The notes beneath the pieces are model-generated. The model searched no databases, was not told the origin of the DNA, and saw only the letters and a program-made list of their open reading frames with translations. A stretch of DNA of 33,399 nucleotides from a virus, in IMG/VR virus record IMGVR_UViG_3300029742_000017, one strand, 5' to 3'. A program made the position numbers and the translations under genes. Of this stretch, positions 1,985-26,041 are shown piece by piece (position 1 is the stretch's first letter; every line of letters starts with the position of its first letter).

Positions 1985-3472
1985 ATGGATGAAAAATCTT
2001 TTAACCTGCCACCAGCTCCGGCAGGAGTCAGAAACTGGATCATAAAAGATGTGATCGAGAAAACCTATATCATATATAACAAAAAGAAAAATGAAGCGGT
2101 GTGCACCCGGTGCGGTCATCGCTTCCGGGCTGACCGGTTTCCAATGAAAAACAACGATACCGGAATTTGCCCAAAGTGCAAAAATAAGGCGACATATAAA
2201 GCAGAAGGTCTTGGACGAAAAAAGCTCGCAGAGCATTTCAGGGTGCTGGTATTGACCCATAGAGGAAATACCGTATATGGATCTCTGACGGAAATAACGG
2301 CTACTTTTGAGAATGTCGGAAAACCAGAGCTTCGTGGCTGGATGTCGGCCGTGTATGTGTTCAATAAAAATGAGCAGAGTTACTATAAGCATACACCGTC
2401 ATGGTGCTGGGGGACGGACCATTGGGAGCAGATAAAAACTGTAAAGCTGCCGCATCCACCATCGGGCATGAACTGGTACAGCCGGCCGAAATTTGAACGA
2501 ACGGAAGTGTATAAGGGCAATCTGAAACGCACGTTCCTGAATAGTTGTTTGAAATACGGATGGCAACCGGACATGTTTCAAAGAAATGAATTCGATGCAT
2601 ATGATCTCATTTCATATATCAACCTGCATCTTAAATATCAGAGCATCGAGCTTCTTACGAAAGCCGGATTCGAATTTTTTGTAGCGCAGAAAGTAATCGG
2701 GAGCATCGGATCAGGCTGTATAAACTGGAGGGGACGCAGCCTAGAGAAGATACTGAGGCTCCCTCGCCGGCATATAAAGAAGATAAGAGGTCACCATGTG
2801 GATTTTCAGGAACTTAGTTTTTTTCAGAGCCTGACAGAGAAAGAAAAAAGAATTTCGTGGGAGACAATAACCAAAGCTGCGGATGCATTCAAAGGCGATG
2901 AAGCAAGGCGCATTGGAAAGTTTATATCTGTCATGAAATGGGCAGAATGGGCCGGAAAGCAGAATGTGAACAAATATGACTGGCTGGACTATATCAACGA
3001 CTGCAGGCTTCTGGGTCTCGACACGCGAAAGAAGTCCATCCTGTTTCCAGAGGATTTTGCCGAGGTTCATAGACGGCTGTCGAAGCAGGTCGAGATCCAG
3101 CGGACAGAGCTGGAGAATGCCGCTATAAAGAAAGTGGCGGAATTCCAGAGCATGGACATCAAAAGGAATGGCTTTATACTGAAAATCGCCGAATCCCAGG
3201 AAGATCTGAATGTTGAGTCATCAGTACTCGGCCACTGCGTACGCACTTATGGAAATAGAGTTGCAGAAGGAAAAACGATCATTTACTTTATCCGCCGGTC
3301 TGAAAAGCCGGACGAGCCGTATTATACCTTGGAGATCCGGCCGGAGGGAAAGTTCGTTCAGTGCAGAGGGAAGCATAACTGTAATATGACTCCAGAGGTG
3401 GAGGCGTTTAAAGATCTGGTTGTAGCAGAGTTTAATAGAAGATTAAAACGGAAAGAGAGGAAAGCAGCATGA
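1985..3472 (+). CDS. PcfJ-like protein (N-terminal zinc ribbon, C-terminal PcfJ-type domain)
   Basis: The C-terminal segment LGHCVRTYGNRVAEGKTIIYFIRR...PYYTLEI matches my recollection of the PcfJ-like domain; CxxC...CxxC near the N-terminus. Confidence 0.55.
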   Translation: MDEKSFNLPPAPAGVRNWIIKDVIEKTYIIYNKKKNEAVCTRCGHRFRADRFPMKNNDTGICPKCKNKATYKAEGLGRKKLAEHFRVLVLTHRGNTVYGSLTEITATFENVGKPELRGWMSAVYVFNKNEQSYYKHTPSWCWGTDHWEQIKTVKLPHPPSGMNWYSRPKFERTEVYKGNLKRTFLNSCLKYGWQPDMFQRNEFDAYDLISYINLHLKYQSIELLTKAGFEFFVAQKVIGSIGSGCINWRGRSLEKILRLPRRHIKKIRGHHVDFQELSFFQSLTEKEKRISWETITKAADAFKGDEARRIGKFISVMKWAEWAGKQNVNKYDWLDYINDCRLLGLDTRKKSILFPEDFAEVHRRLSKQVEIQRTELENAAIKKVAEFQSMDIKRNGFILKIAESQEDLNVESSVLGHCVRTYGNRVAEGKTIIYFIRRSEKPDEPYYTLEIRPEGKFVQCRGKHNCNMTPEVEAFKDLVVAEFNRRLKRKERKAA

Positions 3473-6544: not shown

Positions 6545-6614
6545 CCCCATTAACATTATTAACCGATATAATAGAATTAAGAACAAAATTAAATATGGAC
6601 TAAAGGCAAGGATT

Positions 6615-6653
6615 GACACAAGGATCTCCAACAGAAGCGGAGGTCCTTGTGTC
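6615..6653 (+). promoter_or_regulatory. 15-bp stem hairpin (GACACAAGGATCTCC / GGAGGTCCTTGTGTC, one G-U) 7 nt upstream of the tRNA
   Basis: Hand-paired; 9-nt loop AACAGAAGC; no U-tract follows; a TTGACA hexamer (6613-6618) overlaps the 5' arm. Confidence 0.6.
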
Positions 6654-6660
6654 GCAATGA

Positions 6661-6734
6661 AGCGGGTTAGTGTAATGGGAACACATGAGTCTCCTTAGCT
6701 CAAACTGGCGGTTCGATTCCGTCACCCGCAACCA
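6661..6734 (+). tRNA. tRNA with anticodon CCU (decodes AGG) and an initiator-like acceptor stem (A1xA72 unpaired, G2:C71, C3:G70, A73, encoded CCA)
   Basis: Hand-folded 74-nt cloverleaf: AGCGGGT-TA-GTGT-AATGGGA-ACAC-A-TGAGT-CTCCTTA-GCTCA-AACT-GGCGG-TTCGATT-CCGTC-ACCCGCA-A-CCA. It has U8, G18G19 and a canonical T-loop. Confidence 0.8.
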
Positions 6735-15324: not shown

Positions 15325-18081
15325 AGGGCTGGAAGAATAAAAGGGATCACAATTGAGCTTGATGGTGATTCGAAAGGCTTGGACAAAGCCCTACAAGATG
15401 TAAATAAACGCTTAAAAACAACGCAGAGTTCGTTGAAGGATGTAGACCGGCTTTTAAAGCTGGATCCATCCAACACGGAACTTTTATCACAGAAACAACG
15501 GTTGCTTTCGGATGCGATTGAAAACACGGAGCAGAAGCTGACAACTTTAAAGGAAGCTAGCGTGCAGGCGAAAGCTGCGTTGGAACGTGGCGACCTTGGG
15601 CAGGACAAATATGATGCTCTGCAGAGAGAAATCGTAGCAACAGAAAGTTCCCTGGAAAAATTGAAATCCCAGGCGCAGACTACGGATGCAACGCTCAAGA
15701 GCTCGGGCGGCGGGCTGAAAAGCCTTGGCGAAGCGGCAGAATCAGCCAGCGGAAAAGTGTCTGGTGTCAGCAAAGCTGCCGGCGGATTAGCCGCGGGAGC
15801 TGCAGCAACCGTTCCAGCGACGCAGGAACTTCGGCGTGACTTATCGTTTCTGGAAGAAAATGCAAAGGGCGCCAAAGTAGGCATGAATACCATGGAAACC
15901 GCATTTAAAACGTTTAATGCGGTTTCAGGGGAAACTGATTCGTCTGTTGAAGCTGTTTCAAACCTTTTGCAGGCGGGATTCACGGAAAGTAATCTCCAGC
16001 AGGCGGTAGAAGGTGTATCTGGAGCGATGTCACGCTTTCCGGATACATTAAAGATCGAGTCGCTGGCAGACTCTATTCAGGAGACTGTCGCCACCGGGAA
16101 ATCTATCGGACAGTTCGGTGAATTTCTGGATCGTGTAGGAATAGGAGCATCCAACTTCGACGAAGATCTGTCTAAGTGTAACACCACAGCCGAAAAAACG
16201 GATCTGGTGCTGAAGACTCTTTCCGAAACCGGAATGAACGATGTTTATACCGGCTGGCGGAAAAATAACGAGGCTTTAGCTGATTACGACGATGCCATGA
16301 TCGATATGCAAATGGCTCTCGGTGATCTGGCAGAAAGTATCGCACCGGTTGTGACGGCTCTGGCGGAAGGAGCAACCAAAGCCCTGGATCTTTTCAATAA
16401 ACTTCCACAAGGTGCGAAAGCCGTAGTTGGATCCATGGTTGGCATCACTGCCGCCGCTGCACCTACACTTTCGGCAGTCGGAAAAGTTACGCAAGGCATC
16501 GATGCTCTCAAAGGATCTTCCGAAAAAGCGGGTATCGTCAGCAAAGGACTTTCCGCAGCACAAAAAAGCGTAGCATCGGCTCTATCTGTAGTTCCTGCTC
16601 CGGCAGCAGCTGCAGCGGGAGCATTGGTAGTTGTAGGCACCGCAATATATTCTGCGTACCAAAGCACTCATGAATATACAAATGCCGCCAAGGAAATGTC
16701 CGAGGTAAACGATCAGAATGTGGCAAGTATTGAAGCGACATCTGAAAAAGCGGAGTTTTACGCAGGCCAGTTAGATCAGCTCAGTGAAAAAGAAAATAAG
16801 ACGGCGCAGGATAAACAGCTCATACAGTCGTACGTTGATCAGCTGAATGAATCAGTAGACGGACTGAATCTGACATATGATGCAGAGGCGGATAAGCTAT
16901 CCGAAACAACGGACGCGATTTACACCAAGATCGACGCGATGAAGCAGGAGGCTTTGCAGGCGGCGTATGTTAAACAATCGCAGGCGGCTCTTGATAAATA
17001 CGCAGAGTCTCAGATCAAAACAGCGGAAGCGCAGGAAAAGCTTAAAACTGCGCAGGAAGCTTATGATAAGGCCGCAGAATCGGGATATGTCAGCCAAAAG
17101 CTTTCGACCGATCTTGCGCAGGCGGAAGCGGAATATAACGATCTGAAAACAGCCACAGGTACATACTGGACTGAATATGTTCGTCAGTCGAATGCAGCGG
17201 CCATGCAGTCCGGGCAGTGGGATAAGCTCGTGGAAGAAGCTGGGCTGGCTGGAAAGGACATCCCGAAGAGCTTGACCGATGGAATCAAAGCAGGACAGTA
17301 TGCCGTACCGACTACTGTGGAAGAATTGAAAGCGTTGATACAGTTCGACGAACTGGCAAACAAGGCTGGGGTTTCCGGAAGCAAGACGGTACAGGAGCTT
17401 TCATCAAAACTTGCTGCAGGAGAAATCACCGCACAAGAGGCAGCTGCACAGCTATCGAACGCTGTGGATCAAGGCCTTGGAACGGCGCCTGCTAAAGCGA
17501 GAGGAAAAGGAGACTCTGCTGGAAAACAGTTTGCTGGCGGTGTATCCAGCACAAAGGGAAACGCCTCTGGCGCCGGAAAAGCGATTGGATCTGCAGCCGC
17601 ATCGGGCGCCGCATCAGCGAATTTTAGCGGAGCAGGCTATAATGATGGACTTGGATATGCGAGGGGTCTTAGAAATGCAATCACTGTGGTTGCAAATGCA
17701 GGGGCAGCTATTGCGCGGGCGGCTCTTACGGCAGCTAAAAAAGAATCTGATCAGCATTCGCCATCTAAAAAATGGGCTGCAGCCGCACTCATGGATGTAC
17801 GGGGCTATACAGAATCCATGTGGAAACAAGTGCCGAAAGTCGAAAAAGCAGGACAAGGTGTGGCACTGGCAGCGATGACAGGCGCCAAATCTGTAACAAT
17901 GGAATCTCTCGAAGGATTAAATCCGATCAACGATATGTCGGCCAACATTGTGCAACAGTTTGATTATAACCAGATGTATGCTGCAATGAAAGCGGCGGTT
18001 AGTGAGTCGAAGTTCTCAATTTCCATTGATGGTCGAGAGTTTGCGCGAGTACTTCGGGGCGTGGGGGTGAATATGAATTGA
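15325..18081 (+). CDS. Tape measure protein, proposed AGG start
   Basis: AGG 15325 is the first codon after an in-frame TAA and lies 7 nt after AGGAGG (15312-15317). The extension (x)AGRIKGITIELDGDSKGL matches the usual TMP N-terminus MAG.IKGITIE. The first canonical start (TTG 15379) has no SD. Confidence 0.8.
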   Translation, partial: RAGRIKGITIELDGDSKGLDKALQDVNKRLKTTQSSLKDVDRLLKLDPSNTELLSQKQRLLSDAIENTEQKLTTLKEASVQAKAALERGDLGQDKYDALQREIVATESSLEKLKSQAQTTDATLKSSGGGLKSLGEAAESASGKVSGVSKAAGGLAAGAAATVPATQELRRDLSFLEENAKGAKVGMNTMETAFKTFNAVSGETDSSVEAVSNLLQAGFTESNLQQAVEGVSGAMSRFPDTLKIESLADSIQETVATGKSIGQFGEFLDRVGIGASNFDEDLSKCNTTAEKTDLVLKTLSETGMNDVYTGWRKNNEALADYDDAMIDMQMALGDLAESIAPVVTALAEGATKALDLFNKLPQGAKAVVGSMVGITAAAAPTLSAVGKVTQGIDALKGSSEKAGIVSKGLSAAQKSVASALSVVPAPAAAAAGALVVVGTAIYSAYQSTHEYTNAAKEMSEVNDQNVASIEATSEKAEFYAGQLDQLSEKENKTAQDKQLIQSYVDQLNESVDGLNLTYDAEADKLSETTDAIYTKIDAMKQEALQAAYVKQSQAALDKYAESQIKTAEAQEKLKTAQEAYDKAAESGYVSQKLSTDLAQAEAEYNDLKTATGTYWTEYVRQSNAAAMQSGQWDKLVEEAGLAGKDIPKSLTDGIKAGQYAVPTTVEELKALIQFDELANKAGVSGSKTVQELSSKLAAGEITAQEAAAQLSNAVDQGLGTAPAKARGKGDSAGKQFAGGVSSTKGNASGAGKAIGSAAASGAASANFSGAGYNDGLGYARGLRNAITVVANAGAAIARAALTAAKKESDQHSPSKKWAAAALMDVRGYTESMWKQVPKVEKAGQGVALAAMTGAKSVTMESLEGLNPINDMSANIVQQFDYNQMYAAMKAAVSESKFSISIDGREFARVLRGVGVNMN

Positions 18082-18923: not shown

Positions 18924-19912
18924 TCTTAACAGGAATTGACGGGCTGGAAATAAGGGAACTGAAATTCATCAAAGTAGATGTAGACCTGAGTGACACAAAA
19001 GATTTTGAGATTCAGATCCCGGCGTCCGAATGGAGCTCAGATCTTGAATATAAAGGGCGCATATTCATCCCTGGCACCGAATATGGTGGAAGAATCGGAG
19101 GAAAAGGAGCGAGTACACAGAAAGATGTACGCACCATAAGAGGACATACCTGGCGAGGAATGCTTGATAAGAAAATCATCAAGCCGCCGGCAGGAGAAGA
19201 TTATAAGATAGTAAGTGGAGAACTGAATGCGATCCTCAAACAGCTGATCCAGGAAGCAGGCATGACGGCTCTTTTTACAGTATCAGAAGAAAATACCGGA
19301 GTGTTGATTACAAGCTATCAGTTCGATCGATACATAACTCTTTTGTCCGGGATCCAGAAAATGCTTAAGACAAAAGGTTATCGAATTGATATCCAGTATG
19401 TGCAGGGTGAGAGAGGTCTTCCAGGATACGTGCAGATCGGAGCAGTTCCCGTGATTGATTATTCCGAACGGATAGAGTTATCACAGGACAGCCAGTTGAA
19501 TTTTAAATTTGACGAAAACAAGAATGGTGTGAACCATCTGATCTGTCTTGGCAAAGGTGATCTAAAAGAAAGACTCGTTGTTGATTTGTATATTCAAAGG
19601 GATGGAAGTGTTGGAACTACTCAATACTTCAAAGGACTGGACGAAGTGGCAGAAACCTATGAAAACAACGCGATTGATGATGTAACTGAGATGACCGAGA
19701 AAGGTACCGAGGAAATTATTGAACGAGCCAGCAAACAGACCTTCGAGATGGACGTTGAACGTCTTGGCATCGAAGTGGAAATTGGAGACATTATAGGCGG
19801 AAGAGACTATATCACAGGAATGCACCTGGCAAAGCCAGTTGTAAATAAAATTTACAAGCAGGAACAATCCGTTATTTCTAAAGAATACAAATTGGAAGGA
19901 GATGAGCAGTAA
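18917..19912 (+). CDS. Tail-tip / baseplate protein in the Tal position (Sipho_Gp37-like)
   Basis: Position after Dit; AGGAG SD then GTG. Confidence 0.5.
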   Translation: MVILTGIDGLEIRELKFIKVDVDLSDTKDFEIQIPASEWSSDLEYKGRIFIPGTEYGGRIGGKGASTQKDVRTIRGHTWRGMLDKKIIKPPAGEDYKIVSGELNAILKQLIQEAGMTALFTVSEENTGVLITSYQFDRYITLLSGIQKMLKTKGYRIDIQYVQGERGLPGYVQIGAVPVIDYSERIELSQDSQLNFKFDENKNGVNHLICLGKGDLKERLVVDLYIQRDGSVGTTQYFKGLDEVAETYENNAIDDVTEMTEKGTEEIIERASKQTFEMDVERLGIEVEIGDIIGGRDYITGMHLAKPVVNKIYKQEQSVISKEYKLEGDEQ

Positions 19913-20598
19913 GGGTAATTATTTTCGCTGATGCGTCAGAGTTGACTGTGCAGCAGGTGATCCCAAAGGACGGGTATCTGAATGTCCGGGTGCTGGCGTC
20001 CATTGCGGATCCGGAGATGCTCCGGAATCTGTTCGAGGACGAAACGGCGACCAGGAAAATGACCGTCAAGGAAAATGGGAACACGGTGGCCACGTACGAA
20101 GGCTATACGGAATTCTATTCCACCGAGGAGTATACCGGGAAAATCTACGGTGTGACGAACTATAAACCGGATCGCACGCCTGAAGCGGAAAATGCGATTC
20201 TGGAAAGCTCGGTGAGGGTAGTCAAAATTCAGGCGCAAAGCTTGAACGACACAGATGCACTGACAGTACAGAACCTGTATCCGGAATGGTCAGGAGAATC
20301 CGTGACCTATGCCAAAGATTTTAAAGTCAATCGGAATGGAGTATTGTATAAATGTCTGCAGGACCATGTTTCGCAGGAGTCTTGGTCACCAGAAGACGCC
20401 CCTAGCTTATGGGCAAAGGTACTGATTCCAGATCCGGAAACGATTCCAGAATGGGAACAGCCAGGCAGTACAAATGGATATTCTAAAGGGGACAAAACGA
20501 CCCACAACGGAAAGACTTGGGAATCGCTCGTAGATAATAATGTATGGGAGCCAGGCGTAACCGGAACCGAAACTGTCTGGAAGGAGGTAAGTGCATGA
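19912..20598 (+). CDS. Receptor-binding-type tail protein with two CBM5/12-like (chitin-binding type 3-like) repeats; start AGG 19912 (probable) or TTG 19942
   Basis: Repeats YAKDFKVNRNGVLYKCLQDH...PSLWAKV and YSKGDKTTHNGKTWESL...NVWEPGV. GGAAGGAG 19894-19901, then AGG 19912 overlapping the upstream TAA (TAAGG). TTG 19942 lacks an SD. Confidence 0.6.
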   Translation, partial: RVIIFADASELTVQQVIPKDGYLNVRVLASIADPEMLRNLFEDETATRKMTVKENGNTVATYEGYTEFYSTEEYTGKIYGVTNYKPDRTPEAENAILESSVRVVKIQAQSLNDTDALTVQNLYPEWSGESVTYAKDFKVNRNGVLYKCLQDHVSQESWSPEDAPSLWAKVLIPDPETIPEWEQPGSTNGYSKGDKTTHNGKTWESLVDNNVWEPGVTGTETVWKEVSA

Positions 20599-21164
20599 TA
20601 CCCATTACCAATGTGGCGGGAACGCCACACATAACCCCAAAACAGGATGCAATGTTTCATCGTGGCATGGCCGGGGCGGATAGTTGTGTATATAACTTCT
20701 TTGAAAGCTTCGAGCCGGAGGTGAGTAGTAATCAGAAAATCAAGGCGCGGTCGGGAATTGGACAGCTTCAGGGACGATTGTTTTGCATTGAACCATCGAC
20801 CTATGATGAGATACAGATTGCAAATGGAACGCAGGGCGAGAAACGAATCGACCTGATTGTCGTTCGCTGGACGGTCAATGAAGAAAAAAATACCCAGACT
20901 GCAGACTGGGTAGTGATACAGGGTGAGTCTACGACCGGAACACCGGTATCACCAGCTTATACCGATGGTGATCTGGATGCCGGAGACGCAGTGGCCGATA
21001 TGCCTATGTATGAAGTCAGCCTTGACGGCATCAATGTTACAGGCGTGACAAAACGGTTTACGGTCCTCGGTGGCCTGGGGAAACTGGTATCGGACGAAAC
21101 CATCCAGATGTTCAAAGATGCAGGATATCCAATTTCTGGGGGGGGGCAACGCTTGACGGAATAA
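20595..21164 (+). CDS. Tail fiber-region structural protein
   Basis: AGGAGG SD 7 nt upstream of ATG 20595 (the track ORF starts further upstream); ATGA coupling; ends just after a G9 tract. Confidence 0.6.
   Translation: MIPITNVAGTPHITPKQDAMFHRGMAGADSCVYNFFESFEPEVSSNQKIKARSGIGQLQGRLFCIEPSTYDEIQIANGTQGEKRIDLIVVRWTVNEEKNTQTADWVVIQGESTTGTPVSPAYTDGDLDAGDAVADMPMYEVSLDGINVTGVTKRFTVLGGLGKLVSDETIQMFKDAGYPISGGGQRLTE
21138..21146 (+). repeat. Homopolymeric G9 tract, 16 nt before the stop of the 20595 gene
   Basis: ctGGGGGGGGGcaa, read directly. Confidence 0.9.
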
Positions 21165-21172
21165 TTAGAGAT

Positions 21173-21502
21173 TTGATAGTTGGCGGGACGATAAAGACAT
21201 ATGAACAAGACGGATGGAGAATCAAAAAATACGCAGATGGCACAGCAGAAGCGTGGAAGACTAACAGCACGGCATCAGCGAATGGATTCTTAAGGTGTTC
21301 AAACCCATTTCGAAATGCAAAATCATTACAAATATATACTACTAGCACCTATTTCGGATCAAATGTGGGGATTGTAAGAACCACACCACAGATTCAATCA
21401 TTGTCAGACCAAAACTTTATCATATACGTAAGAATGGAAGACGGAACCGCAGCGCCTTCAAATGTATATGAATTTCCAATATACGCAGTTGCAAAATTAT
21501 AA
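21173..21502 (+). CDS. Hypothetical tail-region protein. The independent TTG start lacks an SD, and the frame is open upstream back through the G9 tract
   Basis: ORF track; the reading frame is continuous from 21137. Confidence 0.45.
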   Translation: MIVGGTIKTYEQDGWRIKKYADGTAEAWKTNSTASANGFLRCSNPFRNAKSLQIYTTSTYFGSNVGIVRTTPQIQSLSDQNFIIYVRMEDGTAAPSNVYEFPIYAVAKL

Positions 21503-22383: not shown

Positions 22384-22668
22384 ATGAAAATCAACTTTAA
22401 ACTCAGACTTAAAAACAAAGTTACCTTAGTAGCTTTAGTAGCCGTTATAGTTCCATTTATTTATCAGGTACTTGGAATCTTTGATATTGTACCGAAGATC
22501 AGCGAAGGAGATGTAGAACAGTTCTTGGGACTGTTGATCAATTTCCTGGCGATCCTCGGCGTTGTCGCGGATCCAACTACAGCAGGAATGAAAGATACCG
22601 ATTTAGCTATGGCATACAATAAACCGAGAAAAGAAACAGATGTCTATCCAGACGAGGAGGTAATGTAA
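22384..22668 (+). CDS. Holin (phi LC3-family-like)
   Basis: MKINFKLRLKNKVTLVALVAVIVPFIYQVLGIF... two TM segments, small size, immediately upstream of the endolysin. Confidence 0.75.
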   Translation: MKINFKLRLKNKVTLVALVAVIVPFIYQVLGIFDIVPKISEGDVEQFLGLLINFLAILGVVADPTTAGMKDTDLAMAYNKPRKETDVYPDEEVM

Positions 22669-23402
22669 GGAGTTTTTCGCCAAGACTTAATGCTCCGGCG
22701 GCGAGCAATAAATATTGGATACATACATCCGGCGGCGGACTTAACAGCTGCATCAGAGTAAGTGGAAAGTCTGTTTTGCCTAACTGTGTTGGATACGCAT
22801 GGGGGCGTGCATATGAGATGCTGGGCAAAGCACCGAAGTTATCGCGCGCTAATGCAGAAACCTGGTACGCGCATAAGGACGGTTACTCCCGGGGGAAAAC
22901 ACCGAAGCTCGGCGCGATCGTTGTCTGGGCGAAAGGTAAAGTCGGTAATAGCAAAGATGGAGCCGGTCATGTAGCCGTAGTGGAGCAGATCCACTCTAAC
23001 GGGTCCTTTACAGTTTCCCAGTCCGGATATACTGGCAAGAAACGGTTCTGGACCAGTACAATCCCGAAGTCTGGATACCTGAAAGGATACACCTTCCTGG
23101 GATTCATTTACTTGCCGATATCAACAGGTAGCAGCTATTCAACGTCCTCTGGTAGCATCAAAGTAGGCGGTACTTACACTCTGCGGGCAAACATGAAGGT
23201 GCGTACGGGTCCAGGTACCGGCTACCGCTGGAAAAAAAGATCCGAGCTGACGGCTATGGCTAGAGCGTACTCCCAGAACCAGACAAACGCCGTGCTGAAT
23301 TTGGGAACGCGAGTAACCTGCCTGCAAATCACAGGAAACTGGATGAAGATTCCTTCGGGTTGGATCTGTATCAGATCAGGCGGTGCAGTATATATTTCGT
23401 AG
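22668..23402 (+). CDS. Endolysin: N-terminal CHAP-type cysteine peptidase/amidase plus C-terminal SH3b-like domain, proposed AGG start
   Basis: GAGGAGG 22654-22660, then AGG 22668 overlapping the holin TAA (TAAGG). The extension (x)SFSPRLNAPAASNKYWIHTSGGGLNSCI is the typical start of this endolysin type. The first canonical start (TTG 22776) sits 2 codons before the catalytic NCVGYAWGR Cys. Confidence 0.8.
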   Translation, partial: RSFSPRLNAPAASNKYWIHTSGGGLNSCIRVSGKSVLPNCVGYAWGRAYEMLGKAPKLSRANAETWYAHKDGYSRGKTPKLGAIVVWAKGKVGNSKDGAGHVAVVEQIHSNGSFTVSQSGYTGKKRFWTSTIPKSGYLKGYTFLGFIYLPISTGSSYSTSSGSIKVGGTYTLRANMKVRTGPGTGYRWKKRSELTAMARAYSQNQTNAVLNLGTRVTCLQITGNWMKIPSGWICIRSGGAVYIS

Positions 23403-24435: not shown

Positions 24436-26001
24436 TTAAAGGCGCAAAAAAAGTGTTTCACCGTTCCATACACATTCTTTCAATACTTTATGTGCAATTT
24501 CATTCTTCTCATCAATCGTAAGTTCTTCAAAGTTCTTGATAAGCCTGGCTATTTCTTTCTGCTTTTCTCGTGCCTGACGTTCGATATCGACTTGCAAAAG
24601 ACTCTGTGCCTGCAGAGATGCCATTTGTTTATTTTTATCCGCCAAATCAGCATCCAGAGCTTCTATCTCAGAGATCATATATTTAGCAGCACGTGATTCG
24701 TTATTGTTAGACAAGATTTCAGAAAGATTTTTAATCCGTTCTTCTGTATGAGAAATTTCCCGTGTAAGTTTTGCCAACTGCGCAGACTTATCTCCTGGGG
24801 CAGCAAGCTCGCTAAAATATTTTTTGATCTGTTTTGGATCGTGTTCGATTTGACGAAAAACGCTTAGTGCTTTTTCGTCAATAATTTCCGCCTTGATTTG
24901 ACTGGTATTACAGACCGTTTTACCTTGCCGATCAGCTTTTGGACAGATGTACCAAGTGGACAATCCATCCTTTCGGTGTCTTCTGGCCAATCCCATAAGA
25001 CACCCGCACTTGCAGCGAATGGTACCTTTAAGCAAAGTGGTAGGGTGAACCATCTTCTTAGAGAAGCTATTGTGTGTGAATTGCGATTGAGTAGCCAGCC
25101 AGATCTCAGCCGGAATAAAAGGAATATGTCTACCAACGGACACTCTCCACTTATTCGGTGGCTGCTTTGAATGCTTTCCTTTTCGTTCGGTAGTTCGGCC
25201 ATAAATCACGATGCCAGTCTTTCCATCCCATCGTTCTCTCTTATCTGTCATGATACATCCACGGCTTTTGTAATAGTCCCAAACCTCCGGAGTAGCAAAC
25301 GTATAGAACGGGGAAGAAAGGATGGTGTAAATCTGCGTTGCCGAAAAGTATCCGCCGCGCCGCGCTTTGATGCCATTGTGTTTACAGTAGGTTTCAAATG
25401 ATTGTACTGACGCATTAAGCTCCAGAAACTTATCATAAAGGTGGCGTATTTTATTAGCTTCCTCTGGAATCAATTCGAGTGTTGTGTGAATCTTTCCGAA
25501 CTCAGTGACTTTTATACGTCGGTATCCCCGAGGTGCAGAGCCGCCAAACCACCAGCCAGCTGCAGCAAGCCCCATCATGTTATCGGCTACGCGGTTGGAA
25601 ATGGTTTCTCGCTCCATTTGTGCAAAGACAACGGACACATACATCATAGCTTTACCTAATGGTGTGCTGGTATCGATATTTTCTTTTACGGAAACAAATC
25701 CAACAGAGTGATCCTCCATGAACGCATAAATATTCGAGAAATCTCGTACGTTACGTGAGAGCCTGTCTAGCTGATAAACAATCAGAAAATCAATAATACC
25801 AGCCTTTACATCTCTCATAAAATCCTTTAACCCAGGGCGGTTGGTATTAGCACCAGTGTAGTCTTCATCCATGTACAGTAAAAATGTATGATCACCTTCA
25901 AAGTGAAGTGCAGCGTACTCACGAGCCATTCTTTCCTGGTTCTTTACGCTGTCGCTGTTTTCTGCAAAGACAGATTTGCGTGCGTAGATTGCTATTCTCA
26001 T
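24436..26001 (-). CDS. int: Large serine recombinase (integrase)
   Basis: N-terminal resolvase motif RIAIYARKSV...SVKNQ, recombinase domain, Cys4 zinc-ribbon region (CKCGC...C..C) and C-terminal coiled coil. GGGAGG SD before ATG 26001. Confidence 0.9.
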   Translation of the reverse strand: MRIAIYARKSVFAENSDSVKNQERMAREYAALHFEGDHTFLLYMDEDYTGANTNRPGLKDFMRDVKAGIIDFLIVYQLDRLSRNVRDFSNIYAFMEDHSVGFVSVKENIDTSTPLGKAMMYVSVVFAQMERETISNRVADNMMGLAAAGWWFGGSAPRGYRRIKVTEFGKIHTTLELIPEEANKIRHLYDKFLELNASVQSFETYCKHNGIKARRGGYFSATQIYTILSSPFYTFATPEVWDYYKSRGCIMTDKRERWDGKTGIVIYGRTTERKGKHSKQPPNKWRVSVGRHIPFIPAEIWLATQSQFTHNSFSKKMVHPTTLLKGTIRCKCGCLMGLARRHRKDGLSTWYICPKADRQGKTVCNTSQIKAEIIDEKALSVFRQIEHDPKQIKKYFSELAAPGDKSAQLAKLTREISHTEERIKNLSEILSNNNESRAAKYMISEIEALDADLADKNKQMASLQAQSLLQVDIERQAREKQKEIARLIKNFEELTIDEKNEIAHKVLKECVWNGETLFLRL

Positions 26002-26041
26002 TGTATCCTCCCGTTTTTTAGGCATAAAAATACCCCAAAAC

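Follow-up and report, generated by a model that had tools for sequence, protein, structure and literature searches.

The lysis cassette of the virus record IMGVR_UViG_3300029742_000017 raises the question of how translation of its endolysin gene is started. The stretch analysed here, referred to as the window, comprises 33,399 nucleotides (nt) and is a circularly closed phage assembly with a genome of 33,300 bp, its first and last 99 nt (1–99 and 33301–33399) being identical. This gut phage is temperate, with a large serine recombinase encoded on the minus strand (24436–26025). The endolysin frame is open from position 22623 to the stop codon at 23400–23402, and the first ATG, GTG or TTG in it is TTG 22776. 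Counted from an AGG codon at 22668–22670, this TTG is residue 37 and the conserved cysteine of the CHAP domain is residue 40 (L37-P38-N39-C40). The sequence indicates that the endolysin is very probably translated from AGG 22668, read by a phage-encoded tRNA with the anticodon CCU (6661–6734) and not by the host formylmethionyl-tRNA (fMet-tRNA).

Start Position of the Endolysin Gene

The lysis cassette consisted, in this order, of the holin, the CHAP endolysin and an open reading frame (ORF) of 114 amino acids (aa). The following features were located in it:

22384–22668, plus strand: holin, with an ATG start and the stop codon TAA at 22666–22668 (Pfam PF04531, Phage_holin_1, E = 1.5e-18)
22654–22660, plus strand: Shine–Dalgarno (SD) sequence of the endolysin, GAGGAGG, 7 nt before AGG, kept in the close relatives L083, L086–L088 and L112
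22668–23402, plus strand: endolysin coding sequence, 244 codons, with an N-terminal CHAP domain (Cys40, His101) and a C-terminal SH3-like domain
22776–22778, plus strand: TTG, the first canonical in-frame start, not accepted as the true one; gene calls placed at it or close to it yield truncated proteins

The holin lies directly upstream of the endolysin with a one-base overlap, a placement typical of a CHAP endolysin in a lysis cassette. The spacer between the SD and AGG reads taatgta (22661–22667), and A22668 is common to the holin TAA and to AGG (TAAGG). A first-pass annotation, made from the letters of the window, had reported the SD, the spacer, AGG 22668, the TAAGG overlap, TTG 22776 and the translation, and all of these statements were exact on re-reading.

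A homologue search yielded 1,588 matches, 33 of which (49–83% identity) were aligned together with the window sequence. In all 33, the first residue was a Met standing in the column of the AGG codon, followed by the consensus M-x-F-x-P-R-L-x-A-P-S with R6 and P10 invariant. The relative L084 (71% identical) reads GAGGTG taagcc ATG tct ttt tca cca aga ctg, and the window counterpart of this stretch is GAGGAGG taatgta AGG agt ttt tcg cca aga ctt. The close metagenome relatives L083 (95%), L086–L088 (98%) and L112 retain SD and AGG alike, and their neighbouring codons show synonymous changes. Over the 36 codons upstream of TTG 22776, the window and L083 differed by five synonymous changes and one non-synonymous change, and this N-terminal stretch is, to judge from its codons, under purifying selection.

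The Pfam CHAP match (PF05257, E = 5e-16) covered residues 39–119, beginning at the Asn before Cys40, which is already position 10 of the profile, and C40 and H101 were invariant in the 34 sequences, as expected for a CHAP enzyme. Solved CHAP domains carry about 50 residues ahead of the Cys. The AlphaFold model of the endolysin had a mean predicted local distance difference test (pLDDT) score of 87.9, with residues 11–40 at pLDDT of at least 90, and its Foldseek matches were the CHAP endolysins Ly7917 (5d74), LysK CHAPK (4csh) and PlyPy (5udm). Because of the conservation among homologues, the synonymous character of the changes, the position of the CHAP match, the solved structures and the AlphaFold model, the region ahead of TTG 22776 was considered to be translated as a part of the folded enzyme. 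The first-pass annotation had placed the beginning of the endolysin at AGG 22668, had called for an alignment with CHAP homologues and had excluded TTG 22776 as a possible start of a CHAP domain; the alignment, with its Met at the AGG column throughout, and the constrained, confidently modelled N-terminus bear out the first of these claims, and the position of the Pfam match, the solved domains and the model make the last one reasonable.

The enzyme itself is an ordinary CHAP endolysin. It shares with the three solved endolysins the fold, the Cys and His catalytic residues and the order of an N-terminal CHAP domain followed by an SH3-like domain, and differs from them in its start codon only. 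Automatic gene calls shorten the protein to 208–214 aa (P0003, P0004, P0007 and P0010); in L086–L088, the called start is a TTG that arose from a TCG-to-TTG change in codon 4. Seven distant homologues (P0054, P0056, P0060, P0064, P0090, P0097 and P0111) had no Met at the holin/CHAP junction and appear to be natural holin–endolysin fusions.

AGG Starts of Other Late Genes

A census of the late operon of the window revealed six more genes with a strong SD, a spacer of 6–9 nt and an in-frame AGG without a canonical start nearby, which makes at least seven together with the endolysin:

9546–10757, plus strand: portal, AGG 9546, SD AGGAGG at 9534–9539 with a 6-nt spacer, A at position −1; relatives have ATG at the aligned position
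10745–11371, plus strand: prohead protease, AGG 10745, SD GGAAGGAGG at 10727–10735; its TAA overlaps the capsid AGG (TAAGG)
11371–12534, plus strand: major capsid, AGG 11371, SD GGAGG at 11357–11361; the first ATG is codon 169 of the open frame, 162 codons past AGG
14238–14777, plus strand: major tail protein, AGG 14238, SD AGGAGG at 14226–14231; the first canonical start lies 63 codons downstream
15325–18081, plus strand: tape measure, AGG 15325, SD AGGAGG at 15312–15317; an in-frame TAA stands immediately upstream
19912–20598, plus strand: gene of the tail/baseplate region, AGG 19912, SD AGGAGA at 19897–19902

The TAAGG junction, with its one-base overlap of stop and start, occurs at both the protease/capsid (11369–11373) and the holin/endolysin (22666–22670) boundary and corresponds, with AGG in place of ATG, to the widespread TAATG coupling junction. 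The early genes of the window and the large plus- and minus-strand ORFs that were checked start with ATG, and in the other late genes an SD precedes ATG, GTG or TTG. Internal AGG made up 0.5% of the codons of late genes versus 1.4% in early genes. The recurrence of the SD–AGG arrangement in front of these frames is, on these counts, more than would be expected by chance.

The second residue was small in all seven AGG-start proteins (V, A, A, P, A, V and S in the order of genes 9546, 10745, 11371, 14238, 15325, 19912 and 22668). Ala was very common after AGG across lineages, and G was found at position +4 in 62% of AGG starts versus 30% of ATG starts. The small second residue could reflect N-terminal processing or the efficiency of translation. 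In the automatic annotation of L086 and L087, the tape measure was called at 900 aa (from codon 19) and the tail protein at 115 aa (from codon 64).

The tRNA(CCU) and Its Family

The genome encodes a single tRNA, located between the early region and the HNH/terminase genes:

6661–6734, plus strand: tRNA with the anticodon CCU and an initiator-type acceptor stem, reported as Arg(CCT) by ARAGORN (Rfam tRNA, 49.9 bits, position 1:72 flagged as non-canonical)

Its acceptor stem, AGCGGGU/ACCCGCA-A-CCA, contains an A1xA72 mismatch followed by G2:C71, C3:G70, G4:C69, G5:C68 and G6:C67, with A73 and an encoded CCA. The anticodon loop is CUCCUUA, with U at position 37, and the stem below it contains A:U at 29:41, G30:C40 and U-G at 31:39; position 11:24 is U:A. 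U37 is highly unusual for any tRNA. Of the marks of a bacterial initiator, the tRNA thus has the 1x72 mismatch, G2:C71 with C3:G70, and A73, and it has the anticodon CCU in place of CAU. With an elongator tRNA-Arg(CCU), it shares the anticodon; the Watson–Crick or G-U pair at 1:72, which an elongator requires for use by EF-Tu, the purine at 37 and A20 of such tRNAs are absent. The features of the acceptor stem that it shares with initiators serve formylation, rejection by EF-Tu and resistance to peptidyl-tRNA hydrolase. A mismatch at 1:72 together with 2:71 and 3:70 is a recognised formyltransferase determinant of bacterial initiators, and of the three GC pairs of the anticodon stem, G30:C40 is essential and sometimes sufficient alone in E. 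coli (PMC5389676).

The acceptor sequence AGCGGGT...ACCCGCAACCA was found in IMG/VR otherwise almost only on phage tRNA-Met(CAT). A scan for the scaffold (initiator-type 3' end and T loop, with CCU, CGU or CUU allowed as the anticodon) detected 19 tRNAs beyond the window contig, all of them with CCU, and a metagenome scan added 27 more tRNA(CCU) loci, mostly from the human gut. The family comprised 13 distinct sequences from about 50 phage and gut-metagenome loci. Position 1 was A, C or G against A72 in all 13, never U, the sole base able to pair. G2–G5 with C71 and G70, A73, the encoded CCA, G30:C40 and the entire loop CUCCUUA, including U37, were invariant, and 14 of the 20 cloverleaf pairs showed compensatory changes. 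Position 20, read by eye, was G in the window tRNA and U, C or A in other members. Among the tRNAs examined for comparison, three ordinary phage tRNA-Arg(CCU) taken from tRNA arrays had a paired 1:72 and A37, and a Pakpunavirus tRNA-Arg(UCU) had A20, A37 and G1:C72. The acceptor stem of tRNA(CCU) is, judged by this comparison, of the initiator and not of the elongator type. A search of GenBank (INPHARED) found no cultured phage with a member of the family.

Regarding the amino acid carried by tRNA(CCU), C35 and U36, which are determinants for arginyl-tRNA synthetase (ArgRS), make Arg the most likely one. The main ArgRS element in E. coli is A20. Recognition by methionyl-tRNA synthetase (MetRS) requires the CAU anticodon, and charging of tRNA(CCU) by MetRS is very unlikely. 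A basic aminoacyl group may be a poor substrate for formylation, as the analogy of Lys-tRNA suggests.

A scan for promoters and terminators around the tRNA gave one promoter-like site, and the number of sites was not above the shuffled expectation:

6550–6577, plus strand: promoter-like site TTAACA-16-TAGAAT, some 85 nt ahead of the tRNA gene, which is weak evidence for a promoter

An inverted repeat read by eye (acacaaggatctcc ... ggaggtccttgtgt, window 6616–6653) lies immediately upstream of the 5' end of the tRNA and could form a hairpin involved in processing or resembling a terminator.

Proposed Four-Base Start Signal

The base preceding the AGG codons was examined together with position 37 of the tRNA. 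A was found at −1 in 7 of the 7 AGG starts of the window and in 34 of 40 (85%) unique AGG starts over all tRNA loci. The same base preceded 39% of the SD-ATG starts in these loci (p = 3.6e-7) and 28% of the internal in-frame AGG codons of the window. The invariant U37 is complementary to this A, and CCUU (positions 34–37) can pair with AAGG. For the endolysin, the proposed signal is the following:

22667–22670, plus strand: proposed four-base start signal A-AGG, composed of A at −1 and the AGG codon, complementary to tRNA positions 37–34 (U-U-C-C)

In E. coli, position 37 of the P-site initiator tRNA pairs with mRNA position −1, as demonstrated by compensatory mutation, and the A37U variant of tRNAfMet favours A at −1 (PMC10018350). 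In the phage tRNA, too, the nucleotide that follows the anticodon would pair with the one just ahead of the start codon. The difference lies in its weight: in E. coli, the effect is a modest, modulatory one and involves A37 with U at −1, whereas in the phages U37 is invariant and A at −1 is nearly obligatory. This suggests that the fourth pair is a part of the phage start signal. The covariation of U37 with A at −1 would be hard to explain unless tRNA(CCU) reads these AGG codons in the P site.

Co-Occurrence of the tRNA and AGG Starts

The association between the tRNA and AGG starts was evaluated on unique (deduplicated) ORFs of at least 120 codons. The tRNA loci contained 49 ORFs with an SD and AGG only versus 121 with an SD and a canonical start, and the corresponding numbers in 61 other phage loci were 12 and 228 (odds ratio 7.7, p = 3e-11). 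Among ORFs without a canonical start, AGG was the commonest SD-preceded codon in the tRNA loci and was outside the top ten in the other loci. The AGG-start ORFs occurred in lineages with unrelated structural modules and included the large terminase, the portal, the major head protein (three PHROG families) and the major tail protein. In phrog_247 and phrog_422, the AGG residue lay within 2–3 positions of the N-terminus of the family. In L099, which is related to the window phage but has diverged from it and whose version of the tRNA has G1xA72, AGG was found at the portal, the protease, the capsid and a probable terS (judged by eye). The set of AGG genes in L099 indicates that individual genes switch between ATG and AGG over evolutionary time.

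Searches anchored on the large terminase identified 12 relatives with 45–69% protein identity, including prophages in Oscillospiraceae and Clostridia metagenome-assembled genomes, and tRNA(CCU) was absent from all 12. For the portal, protease, capsid, tail and tape measure of these relatives, the start codon is ATG (TTG in one case) and mostly coincides with, or adjoins, the codon aligned to the window AGG; the offset was greater where the N-termini had diverged. The clearest case was the tape measure, which reads AGG gct gga aga ata aaa ggg atc in the window and ATG gcg gac aga att aag ggc atc in L007. At the position of the window tRNA(CCU), upstream of HNH/terS, L007 (4694–4769), L008 and L013 (8711–8786) carry a tRNA-Ile(UAU). 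Its use as an initiator for AUA was considered and rejected, as its 1:72 is a G-U pair, the tRNA is elongator-like and the late genes of these relatives start with ATG.

Proposed Mechanism and Alternative Explanations

The location of SD-preceded AGG codons at protein N-termini, the co-occurrence with the tRNA and the covariation of U37 with A at −1 together point indirectly to an action of tRNA(CCU) in the P site at SD-positioned AGG. A-AGG would be brought into the P site either by a 30S subunit that has bound GAGGAGG or by a ribosome that terminates at the stop of the overlapping holin gene. After its expression and aminoacylation, the phage tRNA would be delivered to the 30S P site and would pair through CCUU with the SD-positioned AAGG. 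Translation of the portal, protease, capsid, major tail, tape measure, gene 19912 and endolysin would in this way be tied to expression of the phage tRNA. The dependence of the AGG start on the phage tRNA, also put forward in the first-pass annotation, gains support from the initiator-type stem, the co-occurrence in unrelated phages and the covariation.

The purpose of such an arrangement is possibly a temporal or stoichiometric control, a lock against leaky expression of late and lysis genes in lysogens, or a private initiation channel insulated from interference by the host or by competitors. The idea that the AGG start guards lysogens from accidental lysis is plausible because the phage is temperate.

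Several observations weigh against initiation by tRNA(CCU). The window tRNA lacks the three consecutive G:C pairs at 29:41, 30:40 and 31:39 that mark initiators, keeping only G30:C40, and its 11:24 is U:A and not the initiator-type A:U. A20 is absent from or variable in the family, which would count against charging with Arg. The ancestry of the tRNA was ambiguous in BLAST searches with 74-nt queries: the window type was nearest to phage tRNA-Met, and the D and anticodon arms of the L062-type tRNA were 92% like those of the Pakpunavirus tRNA-Arg(UCU). The enrichment statistics were obtained with a simple SD regular expression and partly redundant metagenome contigs. Moreover, many late genes in the same operon keep ATG, GTG or TTG, and the gating is partial.

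Other explanations of the endolysin start were weighed against the same data. AGG is one position off AUG and weak initiation at AGG by native tRNAfMet is measurable in E. coli, so AGG 22668 might be read by the host fMet-tRNA(CAU) as a near-cognate codon with a middle-base mismatch, giving a deliberately low expression, while tRNA(CCU) would be an elongator supplementing a rare Arg codon. A low level of endolysin could be tolerated, and phage tRNAs are commonly explained as codon supplements. Such a reading is nevertheless unlikely. The capsid, major tail and portal proteins have to be produced abundantly, yet their genes start at AGG in several unrelated lineages, and relatives without the tRNA use ATG. 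AGG with the native initiator serves as a mis-initiation reporter, and raised initiation factor 3 (IF3) specifically suppresses initiation at this codon (PMC6868393). A supplementing elongator fits poorly with the 1x72 mismatch in 13 of 13 family members, in contrast to the ordinary phage tRNA-Arg(CCU) with their paired 1:72 and A37; the lower share of internal AGG in late than in early genes is the opposite of what supplementation predicts, and elongation alone would leave the U37/−1A covariation unexplained.

It is very unlikely that the endolysin is made as a fusion with the holin by a ribosomal frameshift near the holin end, which would make a separate start needless. The endolysin frame is indeed open for 15 codons upstream of AGG, overlapping the 3' end of the holin, and the seven distant homologues mentioned above (330–335 aa) are single ORFs with Phage_holin_1 and CHAP. 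This candidate was rejected for the window, since no slippery heptamer was seen by eye in 22623–22668 (no pattern search was made), a strong SD is ideally spaced from AGG, and in close homologues the holin stop is followed by a separate endolysin ATG, exactly at the AGG column. The AGG pattern also occurs where a fusion would be impossible or implausible, as at the tape measure with its in-frame TAA directly upstream, and a frameshift leaves the tRNA unexplained. An enzyme truncated at the N-terminus and made from TTG 22776, or from a different codon that is downstream or non-canonical (e.g., ATA 22719 or an ATC), has hardly any likelihood. TTG 22776 is the first canonical start, and gene callers pick it or nearby GTG and TTG variants. 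It has no SD ahead and would leave just two residues before the catalytic Cys, far from the roughly 50 of the solved domains; the 36 codons upstream, conserved in 33 of 33 homologues, changed mainly synonymously and confidently folded, led to the rejection of TTG 22776, ATA and ATC as starts. Reading of AGG 22668 by the phage tRNA was thus retained as the preferred explanation.

Comparison with Known Systems

The acceptor stem of the phage tRNA is nearly identical to that of bacterial tRNAfMet, with which it shares the 1x72 mismatch, G2:C71, C3:G70, A73, G30:C40 and the encoded CCA; some members of the tRNA(CCU) family carry exactly the CGCGGGG...CCCCGCAACCA acceptor of tRNAfMet. The phage tRNA differs from tRNAfMet in the anticodon (CCU, not CAU), in position 37 (U, not A), in 29:41 and 31:39, which are not G:C, and in 11:24, which is not A:U.

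Stop-codon recoding in phages with suppressor tRNAs (TAG- and TGA-recoded gut phages) was reportedly described by Ivanova in 2014 and Borges in 2022. The likeness to such phages consists in a phage tRNA with an unusual anticodon that is needed for some of the genes, mainly late ones for structure and lysis, and acts as a translational lock. The suppressor tRNAs decode stop codons during elongation, competing with release factors in the A site, whereas the AGG system would concern initiation, the P site and a sense codon reassigned as a start. No in-frame stops were found within the late genes of the window, which are uninterrupted under the standard code, and the only tRNA is that with CCU; the likeness to stop recoding is one of logic only.

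The closest parallel to the CCU/AGG pair is man-made. Among 12 orthogonal pairs, that of an engineered E. coli initiator tRNA(CCU) and AGG proved the most robust in each of the strains tested; induction was 35- to 402-fold, and in one strain the pair surpassed AUG (bioRxiv 10.64898/2026.04.16.719103). This tRNA, of the amber-initiator lineage, has the same anticodon and start codon as the phage pair and likewise combines an initiator body and a changed anticodon with translation that depends on the tRNA and is specific to the start codon. It was derived from E. coli tRNAfMet and has the full three GC pairs, A37 and C1xA72, whereas the phage tRNA is natural, has only G30:C40, has U37 matched by A at −1, has A, C or G at position 1 and is associated with a defined set of late genes. 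Apart from such engineered systems and mis-initiation reporters, a literature search, which was not exhaustive, found no natural AGG-initiator tRNA, no dedicated non-AUG initiator tRNA and no phage AGG starts, and a natural private AGG start codon read by a phage tRNA appears to be a new mode of translation start.

Initiator-Type tRNAs with Other Anticodons

A sibling tRNA family with the anticodon CAG was found, in scans for other anticodons on the scaffold of tRNA(CCU), at nine IMG/VR loci, on contigs within L121–L134 (e.g., IMGVR_UViG_3300045988_020438). It has C1xA72, the acceptor CGCGGAG...CTCCGCAACCA, the loop CUCAGUA with U37, U31-G39 and G30:C40. At these loci, the codon most often found behind an SD in ORFs without a canonical start was CTG; there were eight such ORFs, seven of them with A at −1. 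They included ORFs of 553, 306 and 158 aa, and several had a size typical of portal, capsid or tail proteins, a resemblance in size only, as they were not scanned against families.

Single phage tRNAs in L127, L129 and L139 had C1xA72 initiator-type stems with the anticodons CAC, which would read GUG, and AAU, which would read AUU; the anticodon stem of the L129 tRNA is GGG/CCC. Start-codon usage showed no clear effect in these short loci. Porcine 'Inovirus sp.' genomes of about 5 kb (MT135284.1 = L061, MT135291.1 = L119/L120, MT135287 and MT135292) carry tRNAs about 78% identical to the window tRNA, with G1xA72, U73 and the anticodon AGU or CGU, the CGU loop being CUCGUUA with U37; in L061, the tRNA lies at 2936–3009. 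No SD-preceded ACG ORF was found in MT135291, and no convincing ACU or ACG start in the porcine 'Inovirus sp.' genomes; an ACT candidate at L061 3037 (MT135284, an UNVERIFIED record) may be a frameshift error.

The anticodon families suggest that private initiator tRNAs form a general class in phages. It is likely that temperate and other gut phages carry such tRNAs (CCU for AGG and the sibling CAG for CUG), with U37 demanding A at −1 and a four-base signal AAGG or ACUG. They would provide an orthogonal channel through which capsid, portal, tail, tape measure and lysis proteins are made only when the tRNA is expressed, i.e., a natural reassignment of sense codons to start codons.

If this is true, a second, natural initiator tRNA with a non-CAU anticodon exists, and the start codon is reassignable, as stop codons are in recoded phages. 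It would add a new layer of phage gene control, with structural and lysis translation locked to a phage tRNA, and would raise questions about the specificity of aminoacyl-tRNA synthetase, formyltransferase, initiation factor 2 (IF2) and IF3 in Clostridia-type hosts. The main structural and lysis proteins of these phages are truncated or missed by gene callers, and phage annotation and protein databases contain systematic errors for this group as a result. For synthetic biology, the phages would offer naturally evolved orthogonal pairs of initiator and start codon with fourth-base specificity.

Other Features of the Late Region

An eighth AGG start in the window is possible:

12873–13190, plus strand: head-tail connector-like gene, with GAGGTG, a 7-nt spacer and AGG with A at −1; ambiguous, as GTG 12879 follows two codons later

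In this region, the ORFs 12704–12964 and 12867–13190 overlap by about 90 nt, and the stretch was left uncalled by gene callers in L087. Further downstream, the ORFs 20541–21164 and 21026–21502 overlap by 138 nt near a run of about nine G (near 21140) and could represent a frameshifted or slippage-prone tail-fibre gene. In L086 and L087, a different single gene of 359 aa occupies the place of the window region 20541–21502, and the receptor-binding region is a mosaic.

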